This document shows positions 236 through 19,180 of a DNA stretch of 49,460 nucleotides, piece after piece. The stretch comes from Patescibacteria group bacterium (GTDB taxonomy: Bacteria > Patescibacteriota > 4484-211): contig JAHJGY010000022.1 of NCBI GenBank assembly GCA_018824115.1, forward strand, positions 1-49,460, written 5' to 3'. Position 1 is the first letter of the stretch, and every line of letters begins with the position of its first letter. Position numbers and translations under genes: made by a program. The notes beneath the pieces are model-generated. The model saw nothing but the letters and a program-made list of their open reading frames with translations. It searched no databases and was not told where the DNA came from.

Positions 236-2242
236 GTGAAGGTAACGACTATTAGTACAACTCAGGAGCGATACAATAGTCATGATTGCGGGGTGAGATT
301 GTTGGGCCTGCTAATACTCTGCGCGACTGTTATTCTAAGTGCTGGAGTTGTTTTCGCCGTGGATGATGATCCACCAGTAACGACTCACTCGTATTCAGGT
401 GTAGAGGGAAGTAATGGCTGGTATACTTCAACGGTAGATGTAGCCTTACGGGCTTTTGATATGGAATCAGGGCCCAAGTCGACAACTTATTGGTTAAATA
501 GTGATCCTCCAACCACGAAAGAATACAGTACTGGACAGAATCAGATTCTTAATCCTTCGTTTGAGAGTGGCGGTTGGAAGTGGGAAAATTTGAGTTGGGT
601 CCCTTTTATTAATAATTGGGAGCATAGTGGCGGTGCTGGATTTTGGCAAAGTATGGTTTATCACAGGTTCGATTGGCGGTCGGCTGCTATTGGCAACCTG
701 TTTAGTGGAGGTGATTATTATTATTGGCACAATCGGCAGGATTATGTCCCTGCTGTGGCCGGGGGCAGTTACTCTGTCTCGGCTTGGGTCAAGACGTTAG
801 ATATTACTGGGCTGGGGTCTTGGTTTGAAGTGTGGGCGCGAGGGGAAACTGAGGCGGAAGATCAGTTGATTGTTGCCAGTGATGTGGTGAATGGGTCGGC
901 AGATTGGACCATGCTCGAGAAAAGTTTAATTATGCCTCCCGGGTTTCAGGGTCTCTATCTTAAACTGGGTATGCAAGACCAAAGTGTAGCCGGTTTAACA
1001 TTTTGGGATGGGATTAGTTTGTATGGAGGGTATTCGGCTTTTTCAGAATTTACTGTTGTTGAGAACGGCGATCACGTTCTGCACTACTATAGTGAGGATA
1101 ATTCGGGCAACATTGAGCCCGAGACCAGTGCGCCACTAAAAATAGATACAGTGAGTCCGCGAGGCTGGGATAACTTTTCTTATGTTCCGGGATCAAATGA
1201 CCACTCGTACTATGTTTCGGTTGAAGTTGTTGATGAGACTTCCGGGATAGATGTTTCCACGGCTGTTTACCGTTCGTATACCGACCATCAGGGAACTGGG
1301 TGGAGCTTTGAATCTGGTGAGGCTTGGGATCCTATTGACAGCGTTGTGGTCGTATCGACTGGCCTCCCAGCAGTTGATGGTGAGACTGCCAAGGTCCGCT
1401 TAACCACGCCGGAGATAGATTTTGGAGATTCAGTAACCGTGATGAGGGTTCAGTTTAGGATTGCGGATATGGCGGATAGTTCCGCTGATAGCCCTATGTT
1501 TACTATAGAAGGCGCTTGGGCAGAATCTATGAACGGTATAGTGTATTCGCGCGGACTGATAAACATGCCGAACTCAGCACCTGCAGGAGAGTTTAATTCA
1601 GACGGATTGGTTGTGAGCGGCGGTGGAATTACGCTTTTCGAATCATCAAAATCCTGGACAGTAGAAAATTATAATCACGAGTTAGCCGGTGTCCCTGGCC
1701 TTAACGAAATATTTCTAGCCCATGATGCCTTGAAGCAAACGGCGGTTGCTTTACCGAATAATAAATTACCTGCTAGCAGTGGGGTATATTATTTCGATGG
1801 TGATTATGTTCTTGATCATAACTCTACCCCGTCTGGGTTTGAAAGCAGTGAATTGTCGGCGATTATTTTTATCAACGGGAATTTATATGTTAAGAATAGT
1901 TACACGATGGAGCCTTCTTCGGCTGTGTTGTTTGTAGTTGACGGTGATGTTGGTATTTCAGGGTTGGTGGAAGAAATGTGGGGCGTTTTCTTGGTCAGTG
2001 GGATTTATGATTCCAACTATAATAATAAATTGCGGCGACAACTCGTGCAGAATGGCGGGGTGACTGCATTAGAAGGCATCGTTTTAGGGCGTGATCTGGG
2101 TCGAACGAGCAACCCTTCCAATGAAGACGCTCCAGCAGAGTTGTTTTCTTTGCCGTATGGCTACTTCTTTAATCAGGAGTTTGTTAATCTAGTTGGGTCA
2201 CAGCAGGAAGTAGATTATTCTTGGAGAGAGGTGGGTTTGTAG
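236..2242 (+). CDS. secreted/surface modular protein with Ig-like and CBM4_9-like (jelly-roll) modules, function unknown
   Basis: 668-aa ORF with GTG start and an N-terminal hydrophobic anchor/signal (LLGLLILCATVILSAGVVFAV). Surface-protein Ig-like motifs GSNGWYTSTVDVALRAFDMESG and GDHVLHYYSEDNSGNIEPETSAPLKIDTVSP. Jelly-roll opening motif NQILNPSFESGGWKW. Confidence 0.75.
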   Translation: MKVTTISTTQERYNSHDCGVRLLGLLILCATVILSAGVVFAVDDDPPVTTHSYSGVEGSNGWYTSTVDVALRAFDMESGPKSTTYWLNSDPPTTKEYSTGQNQILNPSFESGGWKWENLSWVPFINNWEHSGGAGFWQSMVYHRFDWRSAAIGNLFSGGDYYYWHNRQDYVPAVAGGSYSVSAWVKTLDITGLGSWFEVWARGETEAEDQLIVASDVVNGSADWTMLEKSLIMPPGFQGLYLKLGMQDQSVAGLTFWDGISLYGGYSAFSEFTVVENGDHVLHYYSEDNSGNIEPETSAPLKIDTVSPRGWDNFSYVPGSNDHSYYVSVEVVDETSGIDVSTAVYRSYTDHQGTGWSFESGEAWDPIDSVVVVSTGLPAVDGETAKVRLTTPEIDFGDSVTVMRVQFRIADMADSSADSPMFTIEGAWAESMNGIVYSRGLINMPNSAPAGEFNSDGLVVSGGGITLFESSKSWTVENYNHELAGVPGLNEIFLAHDALKQTAVALPNNKLPASSGVYYFDGDYVLDHNSTPSGFESSELSAIIFINGNLYVKNSYTMEPSSAVLFVVDGDVGISGLVEEMWGVFLVSGIYDSNYNNKLRRQLVQNGGVTALEGIVLGRDLGRTSNPSNEDAPAELFSLPYGYFFNQEFVNLVGSQQEVDYSWREVGL

Positions 2243-2844: not shown

Positions 2845-3855
2845 ATGGTGGACTCACTTTTTTATCGACTACTTAATATTGTTAGTGGAGTACTTGTGTT
2901 TTTAACGCTCGTCTCCCCTCCCCTGGTTTATGGTCAAGGGGTTCCGGTACTTAGCCTTGAGTTCCCCGAGGGATATAGTTCTGGGCCTTTTTCAGCTGGG
3001 GACCAGGTGGTTGTCGATCTTAAGTTTGACCCGGCGGGTTTAGAGATTCTCAATGCCGATGTTTTTATTCAGATTGATGATGGTGGCCTTCTAGAGCAAA
3101 ATTTGGTTTTGGATTCTGTGGAGCTTGTTGATTCGGAGCTAACGGTAGCACCTGGGTTGGTAGAGATAGTCAGTAATTCACGCAGCACAGACCAGATTGC
3201 TCTAATGGTGATTAAGGTTGTTGGTAGCGGTGCCGGAGCGATAGTGGAACCGATAACCCAAGAGGTTGTTATTGTTAGGCTCACATTTACGGTTGCTGAT
3301 GAAGTTAATATTACGGTAGCAGGGCTAAGATTTCTTGAAGGAACGAGTTTAATATTTACCTATCCTGTCGATGTGGAACCTGCTTTAAATAATTTGACAC
3401 TTACCATAATTCCTAGTGTTCCTACGCCCACATCTATGCCACCAACACCTATTCCTACGGAGATCCCATTTATTCCCGGGGATGGATCCCCTTTAGTGTT
3501 TTTTTCATTTGGATCATTAGCGACAGCAGTCTGTGAATCGCAGGTTTACCCCGAATGCGAGCTGCCTTGTACTACAGTGCCCGTTTTTAAGCGGTGTTTA
3601 AATTTGAACCAGTTTCTGAATCTAGCCATTTCTTGGAGTGCATTATTGGCGGTTTTGGTTTCTCTTGTTCGGTTAGCGGTTGGGACTTTCGGTTATATTA
3701 GTTCAACGGGTGATGCCAAAAAAATGGAGGAAGCTAGGATGACCATGATTTATGCTGTATTAGGCCTTATGATTATAGCTGTTGTTTGGCTATTTATAGT
3801 TATCGGACAGCAACTTGCTCCCGCTTCCTGGCAAATTTGGTTCGGGGGAGGATGA
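2845..3855 (+). CDS. cohesin-like module fused via a Pro/Thr linker to a Cys-rich, two-TM VirB2/TrbC-type pilin-like anchor
   Basis: 336-aa ORF with an N-terminal signal (VLVFLTLVSPPLVYGQG) and a beta-rich module that aligns by eye with the scaffoldin cohesins. A PT linker (SVPTPTSMPPTPIPTEIP) leads to a C-terminal Cys cluster plus two TM helices. Confidence 0.75.
   Translation: MVDSLFYRLLNIVSGVLVFLTLVSPPLVYGQGVPVLSLEFPEGYSSGPFSAGDQVVVDLKFDPAGLEILNADVFIQIDDGGLLEQNLVLDSVELVDSELTVAPGLVEIVSNSRSTDQIALMVIKVVGSGAGAIVEPITQEVVIVRLTFTVADEVNITVAGLRFLEGTSLIFTYPVDVEPALNNLTLTIIPSVPTPTSMPPTPIPTEIPFIPGDGSPLVFFSFGSLATAVCESQVYPECELPCTTVPVFKRCLNLNQFLNLAISWSALLAVLVSLVRLAVGTFGYISSTGDAKKMEEARMTMIYAVLGLMIIAVVWLFIVIGQQLAPASWQIWFGGG
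2941..3411 (+). other. cohesin-like domain (aa ~33-189 of the 2845..3855 product)
   Basis: GDQVVVDLKFDPAGLEILNADVFIQID parallels DDEMVVDINIIDTANLYGFQFDLAYD of scaffoldin cohesin 1. EVVIVRLTFTVADEVNITVAGLRF parallels GTLVGVRFRTLAAGTSVIDIQGLKL. Similarity is distant and judged by eye only. Confidence 0.45.
3532..3810 (+). other. VirB2/TrbC (T4SS pilin)-like Cys-rich double-TM anchor (aa ~230-322)
   Basis: CESQVYPECELPCTTVPVFKRC is followed by TM1 (AISWSALLAVLVSLVRLAVGTFGY), the loop ISSTGDAKKMEEARMT and TM2 (MIYAVLGLMIIAVVWLFIVIG). This matches my recollection of the small T4SS-pilin-like proteins common in CPR genomes. Confidence 0.45.
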
Positions 3856-3869
3856 ACTGAATTAAAAAG

Positions 3870-5726
3870 ATGTTTAAACAAAAAAAAGTTGCCCTTCGCC
3901 AGTTTATGTTTTGTTGCGTGATTCTAATATTGTCTTTTCTCCAAAAACATAAGGACACTAAAGCCCAAACTTGCAAGCATATTGTTTCTTCAAATGAAGA
4001 GTTGGTAAATGCTAATAATGCAGTTAATCCAGGAGAGATAGTATGTCTGGAGAGTGGAACATATAATGTGGGAATTGGCCCCTCTCATTCTGGTGCAGAC
4101 GGATTATATATCACTTATCAAGCGGTTCAAGGAGCGGTCCCAGTTATAACAGAACGATCATACCTCGATGATAAAAGCTATCTGGTTATCAAGGGCATCA
4201 GGTTTGAGTCTGACGGATATACATGGATATCGACGAGTGCAAATTCGCACCACATTCAACTTTTGGAGTGTGGATTTGACTCTTCTGAGGCTGGAAGTTA
4301 TAGCGGTATCTATATAAATGGATCGCAATATATCACCATTAGCGGCTCAACTTTTGGAAAGTGGATGTTTGGTAATGCAATTAGCGGTATGGGTGGTTCC
4401 CATATCCTTATTGAGGACAACGATTTTTCTCAGGCCATTGCTGAACATGGATTGGCTAACATAAGCGCTTCTGATCTAATTATTCGCAATAATTATTTTC
4501 GCAATCCTTGCGACAGAGCTCTTTCTCTTAGAGAGAAAAACAGTACTGCTGAAAATCTGCTCGTAGAAAACAATGTATTTATGGATAGTAATTGGAACAG
4601 AAAAGACTCTTGTTATGGAGAAGAACCTGGTTCAGAACAGGCTCTTAAATTCAATGTTTCCAAGGGAATTTTTCGTAACAATCTTGTTATAAATACCAAT
4701 GAAGGGAAAAATTATGACTATGGCGGCTCCCTCCATTTTTCAACTTATGAGGAGGTCCTAAAATACGAATACAATCGTGTTTATCATAATACATTTTACA
4801 AAAACAAACTTCATGCTATTACCTTTACTAGAAACACGGATACTTGGGATACTCGTAACAACAAAATTACAAATAATGTTATAGCTGAACACAATTTAAT
4901 AAATGATTTTACAAACAGCGATTGCAGTACGCCTGATGAGTGCAAAACTTATTCTGTGTATATTGGGAGGAGTGGCTTGAATTGGCAAACATATCTTTTT
5001 GATTTTAATGTTATTTCTGATTCCCGGAAAGATAATGTGATTTATATCGCTGATGGTGGCAAAGAACAAACTGTTGAAGAAGCCCAAATCAACCATCCAG
5101 ACCAATTTCAAAACAATATTATCCAACTTCCCCAATTCCAAAATGAAAATATCATGTATGACGCTGACCAATATCCTGAAAATTACTCTCTTGTAAACAT
5201 AGATGATTTTTTCGCTGGCTTTGCCCTTACATCGGATAGTTCAGGGAAATATGCAGCTACTCATTTAGCTGAGATTACCGCTTCTAGTACGGGTACAACG
5301 ATTCGGATAGACGATGCTTTATATTTCACCGATGGAATGGGAATGATCAATGGAGACAGAATTATTATTGGTTCTGATAATCAGGTTACAGTTCAGATAA
5401 CTAATGTAGATTATGAAAATAATATTCTAGAAGTGGATCAAGCTATTAGTGTTTTGGTCGGTGATAGAATTTATCTGGAAGCGACAGGAACAAGTCCTGA
5501 TATTGGGGTTTATGGCCGTGAAGGTAGTTTATTTCCTACTCCCCTCCCCTCAGTTGAAGGTGACCTCAACAACGATGGTGTAGTGGACATCTTTGACCTC
5601 GTTATTGTCGGCAGTTGTTTTGGGCAGGAAGCAGTCGGAGATTGCGCCCGCGCAGATGCCAACGGAAACGGTGTTGTGGATATTTTTGATCTGGTGTTGG
5701 TGGGTGGTAATTTTGGAACAAGTTAA
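3870..5726 (+). CDS. secreted right-handed beta-helix protein (polysaccharide lyase-like) with C-terminal dockerin
   Basis: 618-aa ORF with a signal-like N-terminus (FMFCCVILILSFL). The N-terminal motif IVSSNEELVNANNAVNPGEIVCLESGTYN and many NN-x-F/I-x-N turns are typical of parallel beta-helix lyases. It ends in a two-repeat dockerin. Confidence 0.85.
   Translation: MFKQKKVALRQFMFCCVILILSFLQKHKDTKAQTCKHIVSSNEELVNANNAVNPGEIVCLESGTYNVGIGPSHSGADGLYITYQAVQGAVPVITERSYLDDKSYLVIKGIRFESDGYTWISTSANSHHIQLLECGFDSSEAGSYSGIYINGSQYITISGSTFGKWMFGNAISGMGGSHILIEDNDFSQAIAEHGLANISASDLIIRNNYFRNPCDRALSLREKNSTAENLLVENNVFMDSNWNRKDSCYGEEPGSEQALKFNVSKGIFRNNLVINTNEGKNYDYGGSLHFSTYEEVLKYEYNRVYHNTFYKNKLHAITFTRNTDTWDTRNNKITNNVIAEHNLINDFTNSDCSTPDECKTYSVYIGRSGLNWQTYLFDFNVISDSRKDNVIYIADGGKEQTVEEAQINHPDQFQNNIIQLPQFQNENIMYDADQYPENYSLVNIDDFFAGFALTSDSSGKYAATHLAEITASSTGTTIRIDDALYFTDGMGMINGDRIIIGSDNQVTVQITNVDYENNILEVDQAISVLVGDRIYLEATGTSPDIGVYGREGSLFPTPLPSVEGDLNNDGVVDIFDLVIVGSCFGQEAVGDCARADANGNGVVDIFDLVLVGGNFGTS
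5559..5723 (+). repeat. dockerin-module coding repeat, copy 1 of 5
   Basis: GDLNNDGVVDIFDLVIVGSCFGQEAVGDCARADANGNGVVDIFDLVLVGGNFGTS: two DxNxDGxxDxxD-type Ca-binding loops, each followed by a helix. The DNA is near-identical to the other four copies. Confidence 0.85.
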
Positions 5727-5772
5727 ACTTGTCGGGGCTCAGCTTTGTTCAACTCGGTGTATACTAGAGAAT

Positions 5773-5892
5773 ATGCTTATGTTCAAGAAAAAGACAGTTT
5801 CCTGTTTGTTTTTAATCGCAATTATCATACTCGTTTTTAACTCGGCGCAGGTAAGTGTTAAAGGGCAAGACGACTGTACGGTTATTGTTGAT
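5773..5892 (+). repeat. signal-peptide cassette, copy 1 of 2 (pairs with 11719..11838)
   Basis: 120 nt encoding MLMFKKKTVSCLFLIAIIILVFNSAQVSVKGQDDCTVIVD. By eye it differs at about 6 positions from 11719..11838, after which the two genes are unrelated. Confidence 0.8.
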
Positions 5893-7455
5893 AGTTCTGG
5901 CGGGGGAGATTACTTGTCTATACAGGCAGGTTTGGATGCGAGTGAGCCGGGTGACACTATTTGCGTAAGAGGTTCAACTGATGCAGGAAATCCCCGAGTT
6001 TACAATGGCTATCTAAGATTAAATCAAAGTCACTCTGGGACAGTAGGAAATATTAAAACACTTAAAGCCGACGGATCCGTTTCTATCCAGAAAGGAGTCA
6101 GTGATAGCAGATGCCACGCTTTTGTGATTAACACAAGTATTAGTTATTTTACGATTGACGGCTTCGAAATCACTAATTTTGATTGCTTTGCTTTTCAGTT
6201 CGATAATGACGAGCAGTCCATAGATAATCCCTCGCAATACATTACCCTAAGGGATCTAAAAATTCACGATTTAGGGGCAAACGAGCCCGAGGGGTCTTTT
6301 ACAGGGACTCTTCTCAATTGCCAGCATGTGTTAATTGAAAACGTCGAGTTATACAGAAACGCTTCTGGTATTAACATAGGCGGGAATAGTTTTGATGTGG
6401 TAATAAGAAACAGTTCTAGCCACGATATGAGGCACCAATTGGATGGAGATGGATTTAATGCCAGTAATTGGGGTGAAGATGAAGTCGGCACAGATTATCA
6501 TCCCCACAATATCACCATTGAGGACACTTCAGTTTACAACAATGGCGAGGACGGTTTTGACTTTAAGGCAGATGATGTTACCTACCGTCGTTGTCGGAGT
6601 TACAATAATAGGGCTAGGGGCGTTGCGGTTAAGGGACTAAGACAAAAGATTGTAAACTCTCTGATTCATGGTAATGAGAAAAGTGTTAGTATTAGTGGTT
6701 GGAGAGATAGCAGTGTGGCCATTATTAACTCAACGCTTATTAGTGATTATGCAACGTTGTCGTATAGTGCCTATCCGTTTGTAATGGAGGCAGTGGTTAT
6801 AAATAGTATATTTATATCTCCAGACCGGACCGTGCAAATCCTTGAAGGACATAAGCTTTTCGGGGACAACAACATTTATTATAATAGTTCAAACGATGGC
6901 ACGGTGGTGGCTTATTATAGAGAATGGAACAACGGGGGTATTGGTAATGTTATAGAAACGTTTTACATGAATGATGTGAACTCTGGGCATTGGTCGTCAC
7001 AATTAGATTACTACGATGTGGGTGATAATACTGATTCAAATTCGCAGGGCATAAATCCCGCGTTTATTGATTTAGAAGGGTATAACTTGCAATTGCGTAG
7101 CGACTCAACAGCAATTGATGCTGGCGTACCAGATTACAGTTTTGCTGGGACTAGTTATCTTCCAGCATCCATTATAGAAATACCAACTATAGATATTGAT
7201 GGTAATCCGCGCGATTCTGATCCAGACATTGGTGCTTTTGAGTATATAGATGAAGCTGTCCCATCGCCCGGTCCCCTTCCCTCAGTTGAAGGAGATCTCA
7301 ATAGCGACGGAGTAGTGAACATCTTCGACCTCGTTATTATCGGCAATTGTTTTGGGCAGGAAGCAATAGGAACCTGCGCCCGTGCAGACGCCAACGGAAA
7401 CGGAGTGGTGGATATTTTTGATCTGGTAATTGTGGGTAGTCATTTTGGGCAGTAA
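5773..7455 (+). CDS. secreted right-handed beta-helix protein (pectate-lyase-fold) with C-terminal dockerin
   Basis: Start placed at ATG 5773 (MLMFKKKTVSCLFLIAIIILVF..., a signal peptide). The track start at 5593 would read through the preceding dockerin in another frame. Beta-helix motifs SIQAGLDASEPGDTICVRG, IRNSSSHDM and NITIEDTSVYNNGEDGFDFK. C-terminal dockerin. Confidence 0.85.
   Translation: MLMFKKKTVSCLFLIAIIILVFNSAQVSVKGQDDCTVIVDSSGGGDYLSIQAGLDASEPGDTICVRGSTDAGNPRVYNGYLRLNQSHSGTVGNIKTLKADGSVSIQKGVSDSRCHAFVINTSISYFTIDGFEITNFDCFAFQFDNDEQSIDNPSQYITLRDLKIHDLGANEPEGSFTGTLLNCQHVLIENVELYRNASGINIGGNSFDVVIRNSSSHDMRHQLDGDGFNASNWGEDEVGTDYHPHNITIEDTSVYNNGEDGFDFKADDVTYRRCRSYNNRARGVAVKGLRQKIVNSLIHGNEKSVSISGWRDSSVAIINSTLISDYATLSYSAYPFVMEAVVINSIFISPDRTVQILEGHKLFGDNNIYYNSSNDGTVVAYYREWNNGGIGNVIETFYMNDVNSGHWSSQLDYYDVGDNTDSNSQGINPAFIDLEGYNLQLRSDSTAIDAGVPDYSFAGTSYLPASIIEIPTIDIDGNPRDSDPDIGAFEYIDEAVPSPGPLPSVEGDLNSDGVVNIFDLVIIGNCFGQEAIGTCARADANGNGVVDIFDLVIVGSHFGQ
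7291..7452 (+). repeat. dockerin-module coding repeat, copy 2 of 5
   Basis: GDLNSDGVVNIFDLVIIGNCFGQEAIGTCARADANGNGVVDIFDLVIVGSHFGQ. Confidence 0.85.
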
Positions 7456-7479
7456 GAAAAGATTCTCATTTTAGGCAGC

Positions 7480-7508
7480 TTGACGAATCTCGATTTTCTT
7501 GATAGCTT
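7480..7508 (+). promoter_or_regulatory. putative promoter (TTGACG-N17-TAGCTT)
   Basis: TTGACG at 7480-7485, TAGCTT at 7503-7508, and ATG 11 nt downstream at 7520. The -10 match is weak. Confidence 0.3.
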
Positions 7509-7519
7509 GAGTGTGTACT

Positions 7520-9526
7520 ATGAAATTTCTCCGAGCTGTAACTGTCTTTTTTAATGTTTTTATTCTTCTGGTAAACCCTATCCTCATTTTAGCGGCGCCG
7601 CTCACAATTCACCCTAATAACCCTCGTTATTTTACCAATGACACCGGCCAGCCGATTTATATGACTGGTTCTCAGACTTGGTATAACATTCATCAAAATA
7701 CGACTATAGAAACCAATACAACAACATCTGAATATTTCGAAGAATATTTGGATTGGATGCAGTCTCATGGACATAATTTCACCCGCTTATGGACAGGGCT
7801 TAGCTACTTGGATAATCCACCCTTCCCCTGGAATCGCTCAGGGCCGGGTACTGCCAATGATGGCAACCCTCAGTTTGACATGCGCGCCTTTAACCAAAGT
7901 TATTTTGACGCCGTCAAGGAAAGGGTTTCTCAAATTCAATCTCGGGGAATGTACTGTTCGATTATGTTCTTTGGGTCGCACAATGGGTTGAAAAGTGATT
8001 TTATCAACACGGCTTGGCACCCCAATAATAATGTAAACGATGAATTAGATATTTTTGATAATGATGGCTACTTTTTTTTTACCACTGATCCAGAAGCCTT
8101 GGAAACCCAGCGGGCATTGGTTCGGAAATTTATAGACGAGTTGAATGATTTTGACAATCTTATTTGGGAGATTATGAATGAGCCTGGCGAGCAATCTGTG
8201 GAATGGCAGGAGGGAATGATTGAATATGTGAGATCGTACGAATTCAGCAAACCGAAACAGCATCTAATTGGGATGACCGGAGGCTGGAATCTTGGCGCCC
8301 AGATGCTCGAAAGTTCTGCCGAGTGGATTTCGCCAGATTGGGACTGGTACGTAGAAGGTCCAGGAGACTACCGTGAAGGCGGACCTGCCGATTTTTCCGA
8401 AAAGGTAATTATCAACGACACTGATCACCTTTGGGGTTGGTCAGAGCCCGAAAATGCTGAAGAGATGCGAAAATGGGTCTGGAAAACCTTCGCTCGAGGC
8501 AACAATTTGATTTTTATGGATTCGTATGATCATTATAGAGAAGATGTCGAGAACTACGGTGAGATTAACCATGATTGGGATTTGCTCAGGGATACAATGG
8601 GATATACAGTGGATTACTCTCAGAAATTTACTGACATGGCCGCTCTGATGCCTTCGGACAGTTCAACGGAATGTTCAACAACCTATTGTTTACAAAATCC
8701 AGGAATGGAGTATTTTGTGTATCAACCAAGTTCGGGAGAGTTCACAGTAAATCTCGAGCCTGGGAGTTACAATTACGAGTGGTTTAACCCTCAAGTGGGT
8801 AGTGTCTCGCAGACGGGATCGCGAAGTGTGAGTGGTGGAAATACCAGTTTTACGCCACCTTTTAGCGGTGATGCTGTACTCTATTTACAGGTTGTTGTTC
8901 TCACACCCTCTCCTGCATTAAGCCCTACTCCTCAGCCAACACCTGCGGGTGAAAAATTGACGGGGACAGTAATAGGGGTTTGTGAACCTTATGAGGGGAA
9001 TTCTGATACTAGCTACGGTGCAGCCGTGGACGGGAAAACGGAAACGTTTTCGGACTGCGTGGGTGATGAGATGTACGTGGGTTATGATTTTGGTGCAGGA
9101 AGCAATAAAATTATCAATAATATTCGTTATTGGCCTCGAGATGATTGGAATCAAAGAATGGTTGGGAGAACCTTCGAAGGATCACAGGATAATATTTCTT
9201 GGGTGACACTCTTCACAGTACAAACTGCTCCACCATATGACCAGTTTACAACTATTGCCATAGATGACAATACTCCTTTTCGGTTCGTTCGTTACAATGG
9301 TGCAGGTGGATATTTGAATGTCTCTGAAATTGAGTTCTATGGTATAGATGCTTCTTTAGACGGAGACTTAAATGGCAGCGGCACCGTTGACATCTTTGAC
9401 CTCGTTATTATCGGCAGTTGTTTTGGGCAGGAAGCAACTGGTGACTGCGCCCGCGCAGACGCCAACGGGGATGGAGAAGTGGATATTTTTGATTTGGTAA
9501 TTGTGGGTGGGAATTTTGGAGATTAG
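7520..9526 (+). CDS. secreted clan GH-A-like TIM-barrel glycosidase + discoidin/CBM32-like module + dockerin
   Basis: Start at ATG 7520 (MKFLRAVTVFFNVFILLV..., a signal). Motifs: IHPNNPRYFTNDTGQPIYMTGSQTW, acid/base-type WEIMNEPGE, and beta-sandwich FTVNLEPGSYNYEWFNP. A PT linker leads to an F5/8-type-C-like module (IRYWPRDDWNQRMVGRTFEGSQDNISW...FRFVRY) and the dockerin. Confidence 0.85.
   Translation: MKFLRAVTVFFNVFILLVNPILILAAPLTIHPNNPRYFTNDTGQPIYMTGSQTWYNIHQNTTIETNTTTSEYFEEYLDWMQSHGHNFTRLWTGLSYLDNPPFPWNRSGPGTANDGNPQFDMRAFNQSYFDAVKERVSQIQSRGMYCSIMFFGSHNGLKSDFINTAWHPNNNVNDELDIFDNDGYFFFTTDPEALETQRALVRKFIDELNDFDNLIWEIMNEPGEQSVEWQEGMIEYVRSYEFSKPKQHLIGMTGGWNLGAQMLESSAEWISPDWDWYVEGPGDYREGGPADFSEKVIINDTDHLWGWSEPENAEEMRKWVWKTFARGNNLIFMDSYDHYREDVENYGEINHDWDLLRDTMGYTVDYSQKFTDMAALMPSDSSTECSTTYCLQNPGMEYFVYQPSSGEFTVNLEPGSYNYEWFNPQVGSVSQTGSRSVSGGNTSFTPPFSGDAVLYLQVVVLTPSPALSPTPQPTPAGEKLTGTVIGVCEPYEGNSDTSYGAAVDGKTETFSDCVGDEMYVGYDFGAGSNKIINNIRYWPRDDWNQRMVGRTFEGSQDNISWVTLFTVQTAPPYDQFTTIAIDDNTPFRFVRYNGAGGYLNVSEIEFYGIDASLDGDLNGSGTVDIFDLVIIGSCFGQEATGDCARADANGDGEVDIFDLVIVGGNFGD
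9362..9523 (+). repeat. dockerin-module coding repeat, copy 3 of 5
   Basis: GDLNGSGTVDIFDLVIIGSCFGQEATGDCARADANGDGEVDIFDLVIVGGNFGD. Confidence 0.85.
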
Positions 9527-9621
9527 GTGCGGAGAAGGCCCTATCGAAAGCACAAAGCCTTGCTGGTTTGGCACGGATGGAAAGTTAACGGTAATCTACT
9601 GGTAATAGTGTTGCTCATCTT

Positions 9622-11700
9622 ATGCAGAAAAATATTAGTTATAAAATATCAATCCTTTTTTTAAGTATTGGAGTTTATCTAGGACAATTGTTAATTATGC
9701 CTCGAATAACTGTGGAAGCCGCTACCGACCTAAGAGTTGGTAGCAATGGCCGCTGGCTGGTAAAAAGGGACTCGAGTGAGCCCTTTTTTCTTATGACCGA
9801 TTCTGCCTGGCGGCTCCATGCGCTTTCCTCTGGCGAACAAGATACCTATTTTCAAAATAGACAAAGTAAAAAATTTAATGGCACCTATGTTGGATTAACA
9901 ACTTATTGGAATGATGTCGATGCAAGTAATGCAAATGGCGATCTTCCCTTTAATGATGATACTGATTGTCTTGATTGGAATTATGAATACTTTGAATTCT
10001 TTTCGGATATGGTAGAGAAAGCGGGCTCGTATGGCATTTACATTATTATTGAAATTGGAGAAGCGACTGACAGTCGAAGACCATTTTTTGTGGGTACTGG
10101 TAATATTTCAAAGGCAAAAGACTGGGGAAAAATGGTTGGAGAGTATTTTGGAAATCACGAAAATGCAATTTTTGCTCTAGGACAAGATAGGGATGCGGAT
10201 GAAGATGGTTTAGAGTTACACAGAGCAGTAGCAGAAGGTTTAGTAGAGGGTGTAACTGGTCGAGATATAAATTGGGACGAGTCGTCTTCTGCTTGGAACG
10301 AGGTTCTCTTAACATATCACCCTGCAGGGGGAATACTGAATTCGTCTGATTGGTTTCATAATGATCCATGGCTTGATTTTAATAGTATTGAGTTATATGG
10401 TGGGAGCAGGCAAGATGATATTTACCCAGAGATACAAAATGACTATAACAAATCTCCTACAAAACCTACGTGGGTGATTGAGGCAGCCTACGAGGATCGA
10501 GAATCCAGTGTCCCGGAAGATGATCCAAAGGTTGATGAGTATTGGATACGTTTTAGCGCATATCAGGGAGTTTTTGCCGGAGCATTTGGAACCAGCTATG
10601 GACATCATTATAACTACTATTTTCCTGATGATTGGAGAGACAAGCTCGACACGCCTGGGGCTTTGGACATGCCACATTTGTTCAATCTGATTAATAATAG
10701 TAATAGAAATTTTTCACTTCTTCAGCCTGACCAGAATGTTATTACCTCTTTGGTTGGGAGTGGATTTGAACGACGCGTGGCCGTAAGGGCCAGTAACGGA
10801 GCGTTTATATATGTGTATCTTCCCAGGGGAGGATCGGTTACGGTTGATATGACAAAAATATCAACCGGAGATGTTACTGCACAGTGGTACAATCCGCGCA
10901 ATGGTTCCTACTCAAGCATTGGAATGTATGCCAACAGTGGCACACGCTCGTTTTCTGCTGCAAGCAGTGGAAAGGGAAATGATTATGTTCTTGTGCTTAC
11001 TGGCGGCGAAACTTCAACACCTACTCCAACATCTACTCCCGCCTCAACACCAACGCCATTTCCAATTCCCACCCCATATGCAATTCCTGGAAGAGTTGAG
11101 GTAGAAAATTATAATGTGGGTGGGGAAGGACTTGCGTATCACGATACAACATCTGGCAATGAAGGTGGAGAATACAGGGATGAAGATGTGGATATTCAAA
11201 ATTGTGAGGATGAAGGTAGGGGTTATAACATTGGATGGATCAGGGAAGGCGAATGGCTTAAATATGATGTCGAAATTAGCGAGTCAGGGAATTATGAAGT
11301 GAGATTAAGAGTAGCTGGGGATACAGAAGTAAGCGGTTCTGTACATTTTGAGCTTGACGGAGAGAGGGTTACGGAGGATATTATAATTCCCAACACAGGT
11401 GGCTGGCAATCCTGGACGACAGTGAGTATAGATACAACACGAGAGCTTGTTTTAGGAAACCACACTCTAACCATTTATATGGGCGGAAATAGCTTTAATA
11501 TTAATTGGGTGGAGTTAGTTGGTTCGATAACCCCTGGCGACCTTAACAACGATGGCGTGGTTGACATCTTTGACCTGGTCATCATAGGCAGTTGTTTTGG
11601 GCAGGAAGCAGTCGGAGACTGCGCTCGCGCAGACGCCAACGGAAACGGAGTGGTGGATGTTTTTGATCTAGTGATAGTGGGAGGTAATTTTGGAGCGTAG
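9622..11700 (+). CDS. secreted DUF4038/GH140-like TIM-barrel glycosidase + CBM6-like module + dockerin
   Basis: N-terminal signal/anchor. EPFFLMTDSAWRLH and WVIEAAYE are typical of DUF4038-type barrels, and VTAQWYNPRNGSY of the accompanying beta-sandwich. After a PT linker comes a CBM6-like module (IPGRVEVENYNVGGEGLAYHD...TGGWQSWTTVS...FNINWVEL), then the dockerin. Confidence 0.85.
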   Translation: MQKNISYKISILFLSIGVYLGQLLIMPRITVEAATDLRVGSNGRWLVKRDSSEPFFLMTDSAWRLHALSSGEQDTYFQNRQSKKFNGTYVGLTTYWNDVDASNANGDLPFNDDTDCLDWNYEYFEFFSDMVEKAGSYGIYIIIEIGEATDSRRPFFVGTGNISKAKDWGKMVGEYFGNHENAIFALGQDRDADEDGLELHRAVAEGLVEGVTGRDINWDESSSAWNEVLLTYHPAGGILNSSDWFHNDPWLDFNSIELYGGSRQDDIYPEIQNDYNKSPTKPTWVIEAAYEDRESSVPEDDPKVDEYWIRFSAYQGVFAGAFGTSYGHHYNYYFPDDWRDKLDTPGALDMPHLFNLINNSNRNFSLLQPDQNVITSLVGSGFERRVAVRASNGAFIYVYLPRGGSVTVDMTKISTGDVTAQWYNPRNGSYSSIGMYANSGTRSFSAASSGKGNDYVLVLTGGETSTPTPTSTPASTPTPFPIPTPYAIPGRVEVENYNVGGEGLAYHDTTSGNEGGEYRDEDVDIQNCEDEGRGYNIGWIREGEWLKYDVEISESGNYEVRLRVAGDTEVSGSVHFELDGERVTEDIIIPNTGGWQSWTTVSIDTTRELVLGNHTLTIYMGGNSFNINWVELVGSITPGDLNNDGVVDIFDLVIIGSCFGQEAVGDCARADANGNGVVDVFDLVIVGGNFGA
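11536..11697 (+). repeat. dockerin-module coding repeat, copy 4 of 5
   Basis: GDLNNDGVVDIFDLVIIGSCFGQEAVGDCARADANGNGVVDVFDLVIVGGNFGA. Confidence 0.85.
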
Positions 11701-11718
11701 CTAGATTTGACTAAAAAT

Positions 11719-11838
11719 ATGCTTATGTTCAAGAAAAAGATAGTTTCCTGTTTGTTTTTAATCGCAATTATCATACTCGCTTTTGACTCTGCGCAGGTAA
11801 GTGTTAAAGGGCAAGATGACTATACGGTTATTGTTGAT
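11719..11838 (+). repeat. signal-peptide cassette, copy 2 of 2 (pairs with 5773..5892)
   Basis: Encodes MLMFKKKIVSCLFLIAIIILAFDSAQVSVKGQDDYTVIVD. Near-identical DNA to 5773..5892. Confidence 0.8.
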
Positions 11839-13848
11839 GCTAATGAGCCTGTCTCAAGAAACCAATCTTTGAAAGGGCAGGTTTTGCAGGCAAGTGATGC
11901 CAAGACTGGGTATATTCACATGGATCCTTCAGGGAAGGGATTTGTTTACGAAGGAGGGGCGAAATTTATTCCTGTTGGTCACAATGCGCACACTGTATAC
12001 AAAAGGGAATGGCAAGACGATCCAGTTACTGGCAGAGAATATATTTCTCGGTTAGGGGCACGCATTGAAAGAGATGGGTGTACGGATTGGTGTGGGGATG
12101 GGTGTTTACCCGAAACTGAAGGCTTAACCTATGACGAATGGTTTTCACAGTTGGAGGAATCGGGTGTCAACAGCCTGCGTTTGCACTTTAGTTCCAATGT
12201 TTGGCGGCCTGGTGTGCACCCTTTGCCAGTTGGTAAATACAACGTTATGGATGAGCAGGTTTGCGCCATGCTGGATGGCGCTAGAAGTAACGCCGATGGG
12301 TTCCAGGATAAACAGATTGACGGGGAAGACTTAATGATAAACTATCCGAGTTGCAGATGGCCAGATTTTTCCAATGAAAACTGCGGCCCCCTATACGGAC
12401 CCAAGCTACGCAAGAGTCTAATTACTCGAATGCTTGCATCTGCAGAAAGCCACAGCGTAAAGCTAAAAATTGTTTTTTTCGGAACAGATGGCTGGAGTGG
12501 TGACCCCTATGAAGATAATGGTAATTTTAATTGGAACAGCTGGGAAATCAATCCCTTTAACAGCGCTAATTGCCGACACGACGATCCCGGAAGATGCGGG
12601 CCTATTAGCAACAGGTTCGACTTTTGGACCAACGGAACTTGGAACTCGCCACTCTTTTCAGAAGAATCTGCCATAAATTATGCCAAAAGATATGTGGCGT
12701 TTATAATGCACGTTTGGGGAGACAGCACCGCTATTTGGGACTGGGAATTGTGGAACGAAATTAATTACGCCTCCATCTCCTACGGCCACGAGCAGGAAAT
12801 GGCCAATTGGGTAAACAACATGGCTGCTTATGTCAAATCAAATGATCTTCATCACCGCCCTGTTTCCATAAGTTCCTACAATCTTAGCACTAGCACGGAC
12901 AACCAGCAAAAAATGCAAGTATTTGCCTCACCAAACATTGATTACGTCCAATGGCACTACTACCCACGGGACGAAGATGCCAGTGTCCAATACGCCCTTC
13001 AGGCCACAAGAGATATGGAAGATATTTACAACAAGCCGGCTTTTATCGGAGAATTCTGGCCATGGACTGCCCAGATGGGTCCAATTGAACAAGATGTAAC
13101 TGGCATCTTTATTGAAGACAGCCAAAAGGACGATCCTCCCCACGAGGAATATCCATACCGTCCGAGTTTAGCCAGACTTTGGCTACAACTGATTTCTTCT
13201 GGGACTAGTGTTTCTCATCGTTGGCATGAACCAGGATTAACGGGAATTCGCTATTGGGAAGTTCATCGGCTTTATCAAGGCGTGGCCAAATTTATCAACG
13301 TTGTTTCTTGGGATAGTTGGAACTTAGCTAATTCAATTCCCTGGGAAGATTTTATTACTGGGGATATCGATTTTGTTGCTGGGCGGGGTGATGGAGATCA
13401 GATTTTTGCCATGATTCATGGTATAGGTGATTCTGTAAATGTAGAAATCAATAATCTTGATGATGGGACTTATGTTGTGAGATCTTTTGATTTTATTTCT
13501 GGAGAGGTGGCGGAAGTCTACAATGGTCAACAGACATTTGGGAGCACTTTGAGTCTCTCGTTTAGTTTATCTAACTCAACATTAGATGTCGGAAATGACG
13601 GGTATGACAGGAGGAGAGTAGGAATTTTTCTTATAGAAAAAGAGGACATGGGTGTTCCCACTCCCCTCCCCTCGGTTGAAGGAGACCTCAATAATGATGG
13701 TATCGTTGACATTTTCGATCTCGTTATTATCGGCAGTTGTTTTGGGCAGGAAGCAGTCGGAGACTGCGCTCGCGCGGACGCCAACGGAAACGGAGTGGTG
13801 GATGTTTTTGATTTGGTAATTGTGGGTAGTCATTTTGGTATTTGGTAA
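11719..13848 (+). CDS. secreted clan GH-A (GH5-like) glycosidase with C-terminal dockerin
   Basis: Start at ATG 11719, with the same signal peptide as the 5773 gene. Motifs: WELWNEINY (acid/base-type NE) and AFIGEFWPW (nucleophile-type E). C-terminal dockerin. Confidence 0.85.
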   Translation: MLMFKKKIVSCLFLIAIIILAFDSAQVSVKGQDDYTVIVDANEPVSRNQSLKGQVLQASDAKTGYIHMDPSGKGFVYEGGAKFIPVGHNAHTVYKREWQDDPVTGREYISRLGARIERDGCTDWCGDGCLPETEGLTYDEWFSQLEESGVNSLRLHFSSNVWRPGVHPLPVGKYNVMDEQVCAMLDGARSNADGFQDKQIDGEDLMINYPSCRWPDFSNENCGPLYGPKLRKSLITRMLASAESHSVKLKIVFFGTDGWSGDPYEDNGNFNWNSWEINPFNSANCRHDDPGRCGPISNRFDFWTNGTWNSPLFSEESAINYAKRYVAFIMHVWGDSTAIWDWELWNEINYASISYGHEQEMANWVNNMAAYVKSNDLHHRPVSISSYNLSTSTDNQQKMQVFASPNIDYVQWHYYPRDEDASVQYALQATRDMEDIYNKPAFIGEFWPWTAQMGPIEQDVTGIFIEDSQKDDPPHEEYPYRPSLARLWLQLISSGTSVSHRWHEPGLTGIRYWEVHRLYQGVAKFINVVSWDSWNLANSIPWEDFITGDIDFVAGRGDGDQIFAMIHGIGDSVNVEINNLDDGTYVVRSFDFISGEVAEVYNGQQTFGSTLSLSFSLSNSTLDVGNDGYDRRRVGIFLIEKEDMGVPTPLPSVEGDLNNDGIVDIFDLVIIGSCFGQEAVGDCARADANGNGVVDVFDLVIVGSHFGIW
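13681..13845 (+). repeat. dockerin-module coding repeat, copy 5 of 5
   Basis: GDLNNDGIVDIFDLVIIGSCFGQEAVGDCARADANGNGVVDVFDLVIVGSHFGIW. Confidence 0.85.
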
Positions 13849-13909
13849 TATTTAAATATAGGCATTAGGTGCGCAATTGGTATACGGACTTGACAAGGCC
13901 AGTCCGTGT

Positions 13910-13939
13910 TTGACATACTCTAACTGTAGCTTCTATATC
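13910..13939 (+). promoter_or_regulatory. putative promoter (TTGACA-N18-TATATC)
   Basis: TTGACA at 13910-13915 (a second TTGACA lies at 13890-13895), TATATC at 13934-13939, and ATG at 13943. Sequence match only. Confidence 0.3.
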
Positions 13940-13942
13940 GAG

Positions 13943-14209
13943 ATGGAGAATTTTGATCATAAAGAAAATTTTATGGAAGCGGGCACAAATTTCCCCAAAG
14001 TGTCCCCGAGTAGCAGGAAATTCCAGTTTTTATTAGCAGTTATTCTTTTGTTGTTAGTCTTTTTTTTCCCGATAAATGGTAGATCGCTGTTAGATAGATT
14101 AGTAGACTGGAAACAAGAAAGAGTGGTAAATTTGGTTCCAAACCCATCTTTTGAGGAGGGCCTTGATAACCAGCCAGCAGGATGGACAACCAAGAGTCGA
14201 AGTTTGTGA
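13943..14209 (+). CDS. small single-TM protein ending in an orphan NPSFE...GW jelly-roll strand (paralog A); possibly a gene relic
   Basis: The first ATG of ORF 13877..14209 gives 88 aa. TM helix LLAVILLLLVFFFPI, then ...VVNLVPNPSFEEGLDNQPAGWTTKSRSL and a stop. Paralogous to the next ORF. Confidence 0.4.
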   Translation: MENFDHKENFMEAGTNFPKVSPSSRKFQFLLAVILLLLVFFFPINGRSLLDRLVDWKQERVVNLVPNPSFEEGLDNQPAGWTTKSRSL

Positions 14210-14246
14210 GGGTACACAGGCCTTTGATGTTGGTTCAGTATTAAAT

Positions 14247-14537
14247 ATGGAAGGAATTATTCCAGAGGAACAACTGAAACAAGAGAGTCCATTAGAAAAT
14301 GAGGTTCATGATGATCTTGCCAAGTTGCTTTTTAGGAAGAGGTATATTTACATTATTGTTGCTATGGCAGTTCTTTTCTTGTTCTTCTTCCCTATCGGTG
14401 AAAAGTCACTGATAGAGCGATTAGCAGAATTGGGTAAGCAGAAGGCAGAGAATCTAGTTCCGAATCCGAGCTTTGAAAAAGGTTCGGGGGATGAGCCGGC
14501 TGGCTGGACGACGAAAAGTAAATATTCTTCCGAGTAA
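14247..14537 (+). CDS. small single-TM protein ending in an orphan NPSFE...GW jelly-roll strand (paralog B); possibly a gene relic
   Basis: An internal ATG of ORF 14151..14537 (MEGIIPEEQ...) gives 96 aa. TM helix IIVAMAVLFLFFFPI, then ...AENLVPNPSFEKGSGDEPAGWTTKSKYSSE. The TAA stop ends 2 nt before the scaffoldin ATG. Confidence 0.4.
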   Translation: MEGIIPEEQLKQESPLENEVHDDLAKLLFRKRYIYIIVAMAVLFLFFFPIGEKSLIERLAELGKQKAENLVPNPSFEKGSGDEPAGWTTKSKYSSE

Positions 14538-14539
14538 TC

Positions 14540-17448: not shown

Positions 17449-17538
17449 AGAGGTAGTCGTGGGATTTAAAGAACCCGCCGGATCGACGGGTTAATTCGGT
17501 CGGTGGTCCGATTTTACATTGGACTGGACTTCAATTTA

Positions 17539-18588
17539 ATGCAACAGTTTTTTGGTTTAGATATAGGATCACGTAATATTAAAGTAGTTGAGTTAAACCG
17601 TGCCCGAGATGGCAGGCCTGAGTTAGTGGCATTTGGCTCGACAGAGACGCCTTCCGGGGCGATGCAGTCAGATTCGGAGATGGATCAGCAGAAGGTGGCT
17701 AAGGCGATTAAGGAGCTGATGAAAGAAAGTAAAATCAAGAGTCAGAAAGTGATTACAGCTTTTCCAGAATCCCGGGTATTTACCAGAGTGATAGAATTTC
17801 CACCATTAAGAGGAGAAGAATTGTACAGGGCTTTAGAGTGGGAATCAGATCGGTTTATTCCTTTGCCTAAAGATAAAGTAAAAGTAAGTTGGATGGTACT
17901 TGATGAAGGGCAACTCCCTGAGGGCGAAGAAGCTGGTCGGAAGATGGAGATATTACTGGTTGCTGCTCCTCTAGATCTGGTGAATAGATATTTAGGTATC
18001 CTTGAAATGGCAGGTGTTGAACCAGTTGCCTTTGAGTCAGAGATTATAGGCATGGTTCGTTCTTTAATTACTGGATCTGACGAGAGTGCCGTAGCATTGA
18101 TTATTTCCTTAGGTGCTTCAGCGACAGATTTGTGTATAGTAGATCGGGGAACAATCCGTTTTACGCGAAGTATTGGTACCAGTGGAGATGATTTAGCTAA
18201 GGCTGTTTCTAGGGATTTGGGATTTGAGGTTGCCCAGGCAGAGGAATACAAGCGAGCTTATGGCTTGATGGAGGATAAATTGGGAGGGAAAATCCTGGCA
18301 GTTGTTAAGCCAGTATTCGATGTAATTGTTAATGAGATTGAGAAAGCGATTATTTCTTATCAAACAAAGGTGCCGATGCGACCCGTTAAAAGAGTTGTGC
18401 TTACGGGAGGTACAGCCAGATTACCTGGAGTAGTTGTGTATTTGGCCGAGAGTCTTGGCATAGAAGTTCAGATTGGAGATCCGTGGGTTAATATTGTGAT
18501 TCCTCCACGGTTTGAAGAAGAAGTTCGTCGCTTGGAAAACCAGACTCAGTTTGCAGTTGCAGGTGGGCTGGCATTAAAGCAAGATTAA
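17539..18588 (+). CDS. pilM: type IV pilus assembly protein PilM (actin-like ATPase fold)
   Basis: FFGLDIGSRNIKVVEL N-terminal phosphate-1-like motif, with LGASATDLCIV and VVLTGGTARLPG. The ORF opens at GTG 17503; ATG 17539 (MQQFFGLDIGS) fits PilM N-termini better. Confidence 0.85.
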   Translation: MQQFFGLDIGSRNIKVVELNRARDGRPELVAFGSTETPSGAMQSDSEMDQQKVAKAIKELMKESKIKSQKVITAFPESRVFTRVIEFPPLRGEELYRALEWESDRFIPLPKDKVKVSWMVLDEGQLPEGEEAGRKMEILLVAAPLDLVNRYLGILEMAGVEPVAFESEIIGMVRSLITGSDESAVALIISLGASATDLCIVDRGTIRFTRSIGTSGDDLAKAVSRDLGFEVAQAEEYKRAYGLMEDKLGGKILAVVKPVFDVIVNEIEKAIISYQTKVPMRPVKRVVLTGGTARLPGVVVYLAESLGIEVQIGDPWVNIVIPPRFEEEVRRLENQTQFAVAGGLALKQD

Positions 18589-18619
18589 CGAGTTGTAAAT
18601 ACCTTCATTATTTTTATCT

Positions 18620-19180
18620 ATGCTATCTATGCAAGGAAAAGGGGTTAACCTATTACCTCAAGAAATTCAAGAACAAGAAGAAAAAGGATTAACATTCCGG
18701 AAGGTTAGTGTGCTTTGTGTTTTGGAGTTAGTTTTATTAGCAGTGATAGTACTTGGTCTTTATCGGTATCGGGAACAAATTGGGTCTCAATGGCAGATAC
18801 TTGACCAGGAGGTATTAACTCAACGGAGTGTAATAAATACTGAAGAGAATCGGAGATTGGAAGGGAAATTTACTGTAGTTAAGAAGAAGATAGGTGCTTT
18901 GGGAGAATACTTTGAACAACGATGGCATTACGCTACTTTCCTTGATGGTCTTACGAAAGCGCTCCCGGCAGGCTTGCAGATGATTTCTCTGAGGCAGACA
19001 GAGACTCCATCCGTTTTTGAGTTTTCAGGTCAAGCTGATAATGTAGGTCAGGTGAACACTTTTATTGATGACTTAGTCCAATGGGATGAGGTTATGTCGG
19101 TGTCGGTAACATTGCTGGATTATCAGATAGATAAGGGACGGTTAATTTTTAATTTAGCTATTACCAGGGAAAATATATGA
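18620..19180 (+). CDS. pilN: PilN-like pilus assembly protein
   Basis: N-terminal VNLLPQEI motif, one TM helix (VLCVLELVLLAVIVLGL) and a coiled C-terminal part. It lies directly after pilM. Confidence 0.7.
   Translation: MLSMQGKGVNLLPQEIQEQEEKGLTFRKVSVLCVLELVLLAVIVLGLYRYREQIGSQWQILDQEVLTQRSVINTEENRRLEGKFTVVKKKIGALGEYFEQRWHYATFLDGLTKALPAGLQMISLRQTETPSVFEFSGQADNVGQVNTFIDDLVQWDEVMSVSVTLLDYQIDKGRLIFNLAITRENI

Follow-up and report, generated by a model that had tools for sequence, protein, structure and literature searches.

A candidate cellulosome anchor combining a cohesin-like module with a VirB2-like pilin hairpin in a Patescibacterial genome

The 49,460-nt stretch of DNA analysed here over its full length (contig JAHJGY010000022.1 of a Patescibacteria group bacterium, referred to as the window) carries at positions 2845–3855 of the forward strand an open reading frame (ORF) with an ATG start that encodes a 336-amino-acid (aa) protein, predicted to be secreted and to be held in the membrane by a C-terminal helical hairpin. 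This ORF is the first in a same-strand run of genes extending from 2845 to 17359 (+), which further includes five dockerin-bearing enzymes and a cohesin-bearing scaffoldin-like protein, and its upstream neighbour is an ORF on the minus strand. On balance, we moderately favour the view that the 336-aa protein is the cell-surface anchoring scaffoldin of a small cellulosome-like complex, in which a hairpin of the type found in VirB2-like pilins would replace the surface-layer homology (SLH) repeats or sortase signal of other anchors.

A Kyte–Doolittle scan of the 336-aa protein revealed exactly three hydrophobic segments, at aa 2–30, 254–286 and 296–328. The first belongs to the signal peptide or hydrophobic N-terminus (aa 1–30, nt 2845–2934 (+); helix predicted at 2–23), which would be cleaved after VYG. 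It is followed by an all-beta ectodomain of ∼155 aa that is free of hydrophobic segments and, from AlphaFold2 (AF2) models and Foldseek, is a candidate dockerin receptor (aa 33–189, nt 2941–3411 (+)), and by the Pro/Thr-rich linker PSVPTPTSMPPTPIPTEIPFIPGDGSPL (aa 190–217, nt 3412–3495 (+)), predicted to be disordered from a predicted local distance difference test (pLDDT) score of <50. Directly before the first transmembrane helix (TM1) lies a neck with four cysteines, C230, C238, C242 and C251 (nt 3532–3597 (+)). The hairpin itself (nt 3604–3816 (+)) consists of TM1 (aa 254–284), the loop ISSTGDAKKMEEARMT (aa 285–300) and TM2 (aa 301–324), and the protein ends in the 12-residue tail APASWQIWFGGG (nt 3817–3852 (+)), predicted to be extracytoplasmic, with the motif P-x-x-W-x-[IV]-x-[FL]. 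A first-pass annotation of the locus had described this succession of beta module, PT linker, Cys-rich segment and two loop-separated transmembrane helices, and had placed the gene at the head of its cluster; the translation and the hydropathy scan agreed with the former, and the uniform orientation of the run behind a minus-strand ORF with the latter.

When 1.84 billion cluster representatives were searched exhaustively with phmmer (threshold E ≤ 1e-3), a 357-aa homologue, P0002, was aligned to aa 24–334 with 36% identity (E 6e-34), and a gene identical to that of the window was present on the independent metagenome contigs L001 and L007. The same search matched 291 proteins, nearly all of them over aa ∼230–336 only. 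A spurious ORF and a generic pair of transmembrane helices were both ruled out as explanations by the full-length homologue together with these 291 specific relatives. Upstream of the ORF a TTGACA-15 nt-GATAAT motif was noted at 2804–2830; a scan for consensus promoters and terminators over the cluster gave results at chance level.

The hairpin belongs to the superfamily of PF18895, the Pfam family T4SS_pilin, named after the type IV secretion system (T4SS). This profile matched aa 262–318 (E 1.4e-4, 22.3 bits, profile positions 13–68 of 71), and separately from Pfam the NCBIfam model NF045849, ‘pilin-like conjugal transfer protein’, matched aa 256–320 (E 2e-3). All of the 150 best relatives matched PF18895 at E ≤ 1e-3 (best 2.9e-71), as did all 32 aligned single-copy relatives, and 36 of the 150 additionally matched the TrbC/VirB2 family PF04956, with the relative P0007 reaching 43 bits against a cut-off of 27.9. 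Judged from these family assignments, the C-terminus of the 336-aa protein is almost certainly a module of PF18895 type, and the homology to VirB2/TrbC pilins postulated in the first-pass annotation held up. The alignment of the subfamily showed a conserved loop motif, S-x-G-D-P-x-K-x-E-x-A-R, with G289 invariant and A304 nearly so, a conserved Cys pair before TM1, near invariance of C251, and in the closest relatives the tail motif with P326 and W329 nearly invariant. All four neck cysteines are retained in P0002. The Cys pair and the PxxW tail of this subfamily could be processing or assembly signals. An alignment-based AF2 model of the protein displayed two long helices at 254–286 and 291–324 with pLDDT values of 82–93, and a small beta-hairpin at aa 243–252. 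Thus the 336-aa protein combines a signal peptide with two helices and a polar loop bearing the G-D ... A-[RK] motif, as pilins do; its size departs from that of canonical small pilins (mature ∼70–100 aa), as ∼220 aa are placed between signal peptide and hairpin. A word-indexed homology search with the whole protein returned only the protein itself, and sequence searches of the PDB with the whole protein and with profiles of its N- and C-terminal parts gave nothing but chance matches, namely to a rhodopsin transducer and to helical proteins of artificial design. For the three hairpin relatives nearest in sequence, the contigs are <1.1 kb long and their gene context was uninformative.

The architectures of the 150 best of the 291 hairpin relatives indicated that this module is used in several ways. 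Two to six tandem hairpins were present in 86 of them, and a single hairpin after a short leader, resembling an ordinary pilin, in 37; another 17 carried a Cys-rich extension of 61–150 aa, and 10, including the 336-aa protein and P0002, an ectodomain of >150 aa before a single C-terminal hairpin. Named heads in this set comprised Big_2, PKD and the N-terminal beta domain of hyaluronate lyase. A metagenome scan added further examples. An 850-aa protein (L011:1976-4525) joins an M64 peptidase, a Big_7 domain, Cys-rich segments and a long Pro/Thr linker to a C-terminal PF18895 module that scored 29.8 bits, above the cut-off. Two proteins on a Hainich groundwater contig (L016:7187-8221 and L016:8206-9120) begin with a PF18895 module that is followed by another domain, in one case an SLT lytic transglycosylase (E 6.5e-23), amounting to a fusion of VirB2-like and VirB1-like parts, and three or four small PF18895 pilins, encoded as an array, adjoin them. 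A 392-aa Ig-like protein with a PF18895 hairpin (L014:21-1199) is encoded beside another pilin array. Large extracytoplasmic domains are recurrently found on the hairpin, which suits a membrane tether no less than a subunit of a filament; the PF18895 hairpin thus has the appearance of a tether in general use at the cell surface.

These relatives bear on whether the 336-aa protein might be a true polymerising pilin, with display along a filament as raised in the first-pass annotation. A T4SS from another part of the genome would then pull the hairpin out of the membrane and build a VirB2-type filament from it, alone or as a minor subunit among ordinary pilins, and its modules would present many dockerin complexes along the filament. 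The homology of the hairpin to the pilin family, including the S-x-GD...A-[RK] loop, speaks for such a role, and T4SS components such as VirB4 and VirB6 occur commonly in Patescibacteria, where many pilin genes are found at a distance from virB4 (PMC12102498). VirB2-like pilins (PF04956 or PF18895) are widespread in this group and often arrayed, especially in Microgenomatia and Saccharimonadia, and pilins fused to ectodomains are not mentioned in that study (PMC12102498). The geometry of conjugative pili would, in addition, topologically allow an N-terminal fusion. The cryo-electron microscopy structures of the F- and T-pilus, that is of solved conjugative pili, have the pilin termini directed outward and the inter-helix loop lining the lumen. 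In the gene neighbourhoods, to which this result is confined, no T4SS assembly gene (virB4, virB6, virB3/prgI and others) was found, either among the ORFs of the window or on the 10.9-kb locus of P0002 (on a 12.3-kb contig). Likewise, a local hidden Markov model (HMM) of the hairpin detected a single copy in the window, with no second PF18895 module and no pilin array. Ectodomains as large as that of the 850-aa M64 peptidase protein would be difficult to accommodate if each subunit of a helical filament carried one, and the pre-TM1 Cys pair and PxxW tail of the subfamily are not described for canonical pilins. We regard a polymerising pilin as improbable. Given a PF18895 module and a dockerin receptor in the same protein, it appears fairly likely that it functions in tethering to the membrane and not as part of a filament.

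The N-terminal module (aa 33–189) had P0002 as its sole homologue among the 1.84 billion cluster representatives, with 29% identity over the module. Its structure was modelled twice. The single-sequence AF2 model was poor (pLDDT of 49.8), although all-beta; the alignment-based model, computed from two full-length sequences and 25 hairpins, reached 70.6 overall, the 10-residue blocks of the module lying mostly at 71–90 with dips to 54–64, and placed nine main strands between aa 35 and 174. When the alignment-based model was compared with the PDB by Foldseek, cohesins (6kgd/6kgc/6kge/6kgf, 5k39, 5m0y, 1g1k, 4fl4_K, 2b59, 2bm3 and 1qzn) held the top 12 ranks with probabilities of up to 1.0 and E-values of 1e-3 to 4e-3. 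With the single-sequence model cohesins were the commonest family, interspersed with Gram-positive pilins, and 1aoh was among the cohesins retrieved across models. According to these models, a cohesin-like fold of the module is likely, though not certain.

The genes downstream of the 336-aa protein supply both enzymes and a scaffoldin. Only 14 nt separate its stop from the next gene, enzyme 1 (3870–5726 (+)), a right-handed beta-helix protein with an A-type dockerin (PF13229, PF00404). Enzyme 2 (5773–7455 (+)) likewise ends in an A-type dockerin (PF00404). Enzyme 3 (7511–9526 (+)) combines, by Pfam, a GH5/apiosidase-like domain and an F5/8-type-C-like module with an A-type dockerin, and enzyme 4 (9622–11700 (+)) an apiosidase-like catalytic domain (PF13204, E 1.5e-52) with a carbohydrate-binding module (CBM) of the CBM6/35 type (CBM_6) and an A-type dockerin (PF00404). 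Enzyme 5 (11707–13848 (+), with a likely start at 11719) has a catalytic region without assignment before its A-type dockerin (PF00404). By class, the five comprise two right-handed beta-helix or similar proteins, two apiosidase/GH5-like proteins and one with an unassigned catalytic region. The scaffoldin-like gene (14540–17359 (+)) encodes 939 aa with two Pfam cohesins (PF00963, E 6e-19 in two stretches; nt ∼15029–15439 and ∼16115–16522) and a B-type dockerin (PF00404) from nt 17186 onwards. The cluster thus holds dockerin enzymes alongside a scaffoldin that itself bears a second type of dockerin. The five A-type dockerins are near-identical, DLNNDGVVDIFDLVI.GSCFGQEAVGDCARADANGNGVVD.FDLVIVG..FG, and the B-type dockerin, DVNGDGVVNIDDLKAVINCWGKSYCLPLETDINGDGIVNGWDVIELTRYLI, is unlike them in sequence. 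At the recognition positions the A-type has the same residues (I-F) in both repeats, and the B-type I-D and G-W. Identical and different recognition residues in the two dockerin repeats go, in known systems, with dual and single binding modes, respectively. The second scaffoldin cohesin, which was the one queried, was nearest to the type II cohesins 1tyj and 2y3n.

Several repeats and small ORFs were observed within this cluster and at its borders. A 184-nt dockerin-coding repeat in five copies, 73–86% identical (5533–5716, 7265–7448, 9336–9519, 11510–11693 and 13655–13838), closes the five enzyme genes. The 5′ ends of the enzyme 2 and enzyme 5 genes share a 123-nt direct repeat (5770–5892 and 11716–11838, 95% identical), which encodes near-identical signal peptides, MLMFKKK.VSCLFLIAIIIL.F.SAQVSVKGQDD, in two otherwise different dockerin enzymes and suggests recent recombination or gene conversion. 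As the repeat carries the signal peptide, the enzyme 2 gene, the listed ORF of which begins at 5593, probably starts with the ATG at 5773. Within the scaffoldin gene a 99-nt tandem repeat encoding Pro/Thr linker is located at 15491–15688. A 128-aa ORF with one transmembrane segment and no Pfam family (14151–14537 (+)) stops 3 nt before the scaffoldin start, and it contains a motif, NLVPNPSFEKGSG..AGW, similar to NQILNPSFESGGW of the product of 236–2242 (+). The latter gene, just upstream of the cluster, encodes a 668-aa protein with an N-terminal transmembrane segment and no dockerin, which matched an OmpL47-type beta-barrel domain model below threshold (NCBIfam, 33.7 bits, cut-off 40) and DUF7305 weakly. 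Directly after the scaffoldin gene, the region 17503–19872 (+) encodes PilM (PF11104, E 2e-46), a PilN-like protein matched weakly by PF05137 (20.2 bits, short of the cut-off of 22.8) and another product without a Pfam match; these are genes of a type IV pilus and not of a T4SS.

Further evidence on the partner of the module came from the second genome. The P0002 gene is located on contig JAHISN010000040 (L002) of a Patescibacteria metagenome-assembled genome, and on two further contigs of the same organism. The 348 nt between the start of this contig and the P0002 gene represent the 3′ end of a gene terminating in a dockerin, FDINGDGVVDVDDLVDLLKCWGKTYCPLPRADIDRNGEINARDALALVMYLL. This dockerin aligned without gaps to the B-type dockerin of the window with 46% identity and 70% similarity (60.5 bits, E 5e-16), and both share a CWGK[ST]YC linker and a YL tail, whereas its score with an A-type dockerin was 31 bits. 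A B-type dockerin is encoded near each of the two orthologues, although these are themselves only 36% identical, and no other observation argues as strongly for a joint function of the module and this class of dockerin. Downstream of the P0002 gene follow genes for a P-type ATPase, a peptide deformylase and a sortase (PF04203, 54 bits), and rpsL, rpsG and fusA. The first-pass annotation had raised the possibility of a cell without a classical wall anchor, an idea that is weakened by the sortase on this contig; in the window, no ORF showed an LPXTG-type tail or a sortase motif, and the 336-aa protein gave no SLH or sortase-signal match with Pfam or NCBIfam.

Several results weigh against the proposed anchoring scaffoldin. 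The isolated module, as well as that of P0002, matched no Pfam family at E ≤ 10, a PDB profile search with the N-terminal module yielded no cohesin, and BLASTP of the module against the scaffoldin cohesins of the window gave no match. An hhalign comparison of a two-sequence N-terminal profile with a small, five-sequence cohesin profile (three from the PDB and the two of the window) resulted in a probability of <1% and a P-value of 0.08. The fold matches to cohesins were borderline, with template-modelling (TM) scores to the target of 0.26–0.45 and root mean square deviations of 6.5–13 Å, and similar TM scores were obtained by Foldseek for other small sandwiches (among them BslA, a domain binding chitin and a lipoprotein of a conjugative transposon); the alignment over the module was only two sequences deep. 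As to the hairpin, its PF18895 score lies below the gathering cut-off of 26.6 bits, and the C-terminal profile reached no solved VirB2/TraA pilin in the PDB sequence search, so that the link to VirB2 rests on Pfam families and not on solved structures. In the second genome, the downstream neighbour of the P0002 gene is a P-type ATPase instead of dockerin enzymes, and the contig end cuts the upstream gene so that only its dockerin is visible. Finally, the pairing of individual dockerins with individual cohesins is entirely inferred.

Other sequence comparisons of the module were equally negative. A local cohesin HMM did not match it, and the module and the Pfam cohesins of the window were rejected as paralogues for want of similarity by this HMM or BLASTP. 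Word-indexed searches with the N-terminal alignment, and with an in-window cohesin, returned nothing. The register in which hhalign placed a G-D-x-V ... a-D ... L-E stretch corresponded to what had been expected by eye; it was discounted and counted as no evidence. The cohesin-like nature of the module proposed in the first-pass annotation is backed by the leading Foldseek matches of two AF2 models and by the gene context, including the B-type dockerin of the second genome, and by none of the sequence tests.

The same results have to be considered with a different function of the module in mind, namely that of a generic beta-sandwich head, adhesive or carbohydrate-binding, which would sit on a pilin-type tether and bind a substrate glycan or a host surface instead of a dockerin. 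The proximity of the dockerin genes would then stem from a common function, in foraging for glycans or attacking a host, and not from direct binding. The lack of any sequence link between module and cohesins, TM scores of cohesins no better than those of other sandwiches including CBMs and adhesin domains, and the Ig-like, PKD, Big_2 and Cys-rich heads of the hairpin relatives all agree with such a head, as does the position of the PilM/N(/O-like) genes after the cluster, type IV pili being implicated in host attachment of candidate phyla radiation (CPR) bacteria (PMC12102498). It is harder to reconcile with the fact that cohesins, a tiny fraction of PDB chains, filled the top 12 ranks with the alignment-based model and were the commonest family with the single-sequence model, that the neighbourhood of a B-type dockerin is kept in the only other genome with the module, and that the B-type dockerin class of the scaffoldin has no other visible receptor in the window. 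Overall, a non-dockerin ligand with a merely functional association of the neighbouring genes seems unlikely to us, although less so than polymerisation, and we consider a dockerin-receptor function of the N-terminal module somewhat more probable than not.

The anchoring scaffoldin that we favour could operate as follows. The protein would be exported by the Sec pathway with removal of its signal peptide, and the hairpin, by homology a diverged member of PF18895, would span the cytoplasmic membrane so that its two ends lie outside and its loop, which contains Lys/Arg, lies inside, an orientation deduced from the topology of the family and the positive-inside rule. The Pro/Thr linker and the disulfide-capable neck would space the ∼155-aa beta-sandwich from the membrane and through the envelope. 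The module would act as a highly diverged cohesin-like receptor, and its likeliest ligand, on the grounds of fold similarity and the conserved gene neighbourhood, would be the B-type dockerin of the scaffoldin 14540–17359. The two cohesins of the scaffoldin would in turn recruit the five A-type dockerin enzymes, giving rise to a three-tier, cell-bound assembly for glycan degradation. The hairpin would hereby take over the role of SLH repeats or a sortase signal, and its polymerisation would not be required. The organism is a CPR bacterium, probably of Microgenomatia type.

Anchoring scaffoldins of known cellulosomes are fixed by SLH repeats in Clostridium thermocellum (SdbA, OlpB) and by a sortase signal in Ruminococcus flavefaciens (ScaE), and to our knowledge the attachment of cellulosomes to cells is restricted to these few ways. 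The 336-aa protein has in common with such anchors a single module of (here putative) cohesin type, a Pro/Thr linker and a predicted position at the cell surface; the cluster similarly co-encodes a cohesin scaffoldin whose dockerin differs from those of the enzymes, and the tiers of enzyme, scaffoldin and anchor would correspond. In contrast to them, it possesses a VirB2-like two-helix hairpin and neither SLH repeats nor LPXTG, occurs in a CPR host, and contains a putative cohesin without detectable similarity to the Pfam Cohesin family. By analogy only, the proposed layout, in which the scaffoldin that would bind the enzymes bears type-II-like cohesins and the anchor one of another kind, recalls that of Pseudobacteroides cellulosolvens.

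When set beside VirB2/TrbC and Patescibacterial pilins (PF04956, PF18895), the protein shares the signal peptide, the two helices and the charged S-x-GD...A-[RK] loop, and deviates by a stretch of ∼220 aa (ectodomain, linker, Cys neck) between signal peptide and hairpin, by the absence of an array or T4SS genes nearby in the window, by its PF18895 score below the cut-off, and by the PxxW tail and pre-TM Cys pair of its subfamily. The other ectodomain–PF18895 fusions (L011, L016, L014) have the same hairpin, usually after a Pro/Thr-rich linker, but differ in their heads, in the N-terminal position of the hairpin in the SLT proteins and, in some instances, in their location beside arrays of small pilins.

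Proteins with cohesins and dockerins are encoded in Microgenomates of the CPR (Ca. Shapirobacterales and Ca. Roizmanbacterium) and were found there by proteomics (PMC9123182). These systems, with Pfam cohesins and dockerins, glycoside hydrolases and lyases in CPR bacteria, are probably of the same kind as the cluster 3870–17359. Because they have already been reported (PMC9123182), a dockerin/cohesin cluster as such is not new; the passages of the article that were consulted do not state how the complex is attached to the cell. What appears to be new in the literature searched is a cohesin-like module on a VirB2-like hairpin as a candidate anchor, and, likewise within that literature, the fact that PF18895 ‘pilins’ include carriers of ectodomains.

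Two further features of the window were also recorded. The ORF 27679–33093 (−) encodes a 1803-aa alpha-2-macroglobulin-like protein (A2M_BRD, MG2, bMG3, A2M), in which Hint-type matches (Vint, PT-HINT) at aa ∼1049–1179 separate the bait region from the A2M domain and have the appearance of an intein-like element inserted into a bacterial A2M. The GC skew was positive in 22 of 24 bins of 2 kb (up to +0.23), even in stretches with minus-strand genes exclusively, and slightly negative only at 42–46 kb; an unusual strand composition disparity is described for a Microgenomates genome in the title of PMC7143001.

If the anchoring role of the 336-aa protein is correct, a receptor on a VirB2-like hairpin would represent a third mode of cellulosome attachment, present in an ultra-small CPR bacterium whose surface is poorly understood, and would supply the missing cell anchor for the cohesin/dockerin systems of Microgenomates; surveys based on Pfam cohesins would miss the gene 2845–3855. 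A cellulosome on a conjugative-type pilus, with modules, scaffoldin and the five enzymes arranged along or at the tip of a VirB2-type filament, is in our opinion very improbable; if it existed, substrate or host cell would be reachable at a distance, and the large-headed PF18895 pilins (protease, lytic transglycosylase, Ig-like) would constitute a general filament system for enzyme display in CPR bacteria. Counts of Patescibacterial ‘VirB2-like pilins’ include ectodomain proteins, part of which may be tethers rather than, or besides, pilus subunits, and this possibility within PF18895 affects the interpretation of the T4SS pilin arrays of Patescibacteria.

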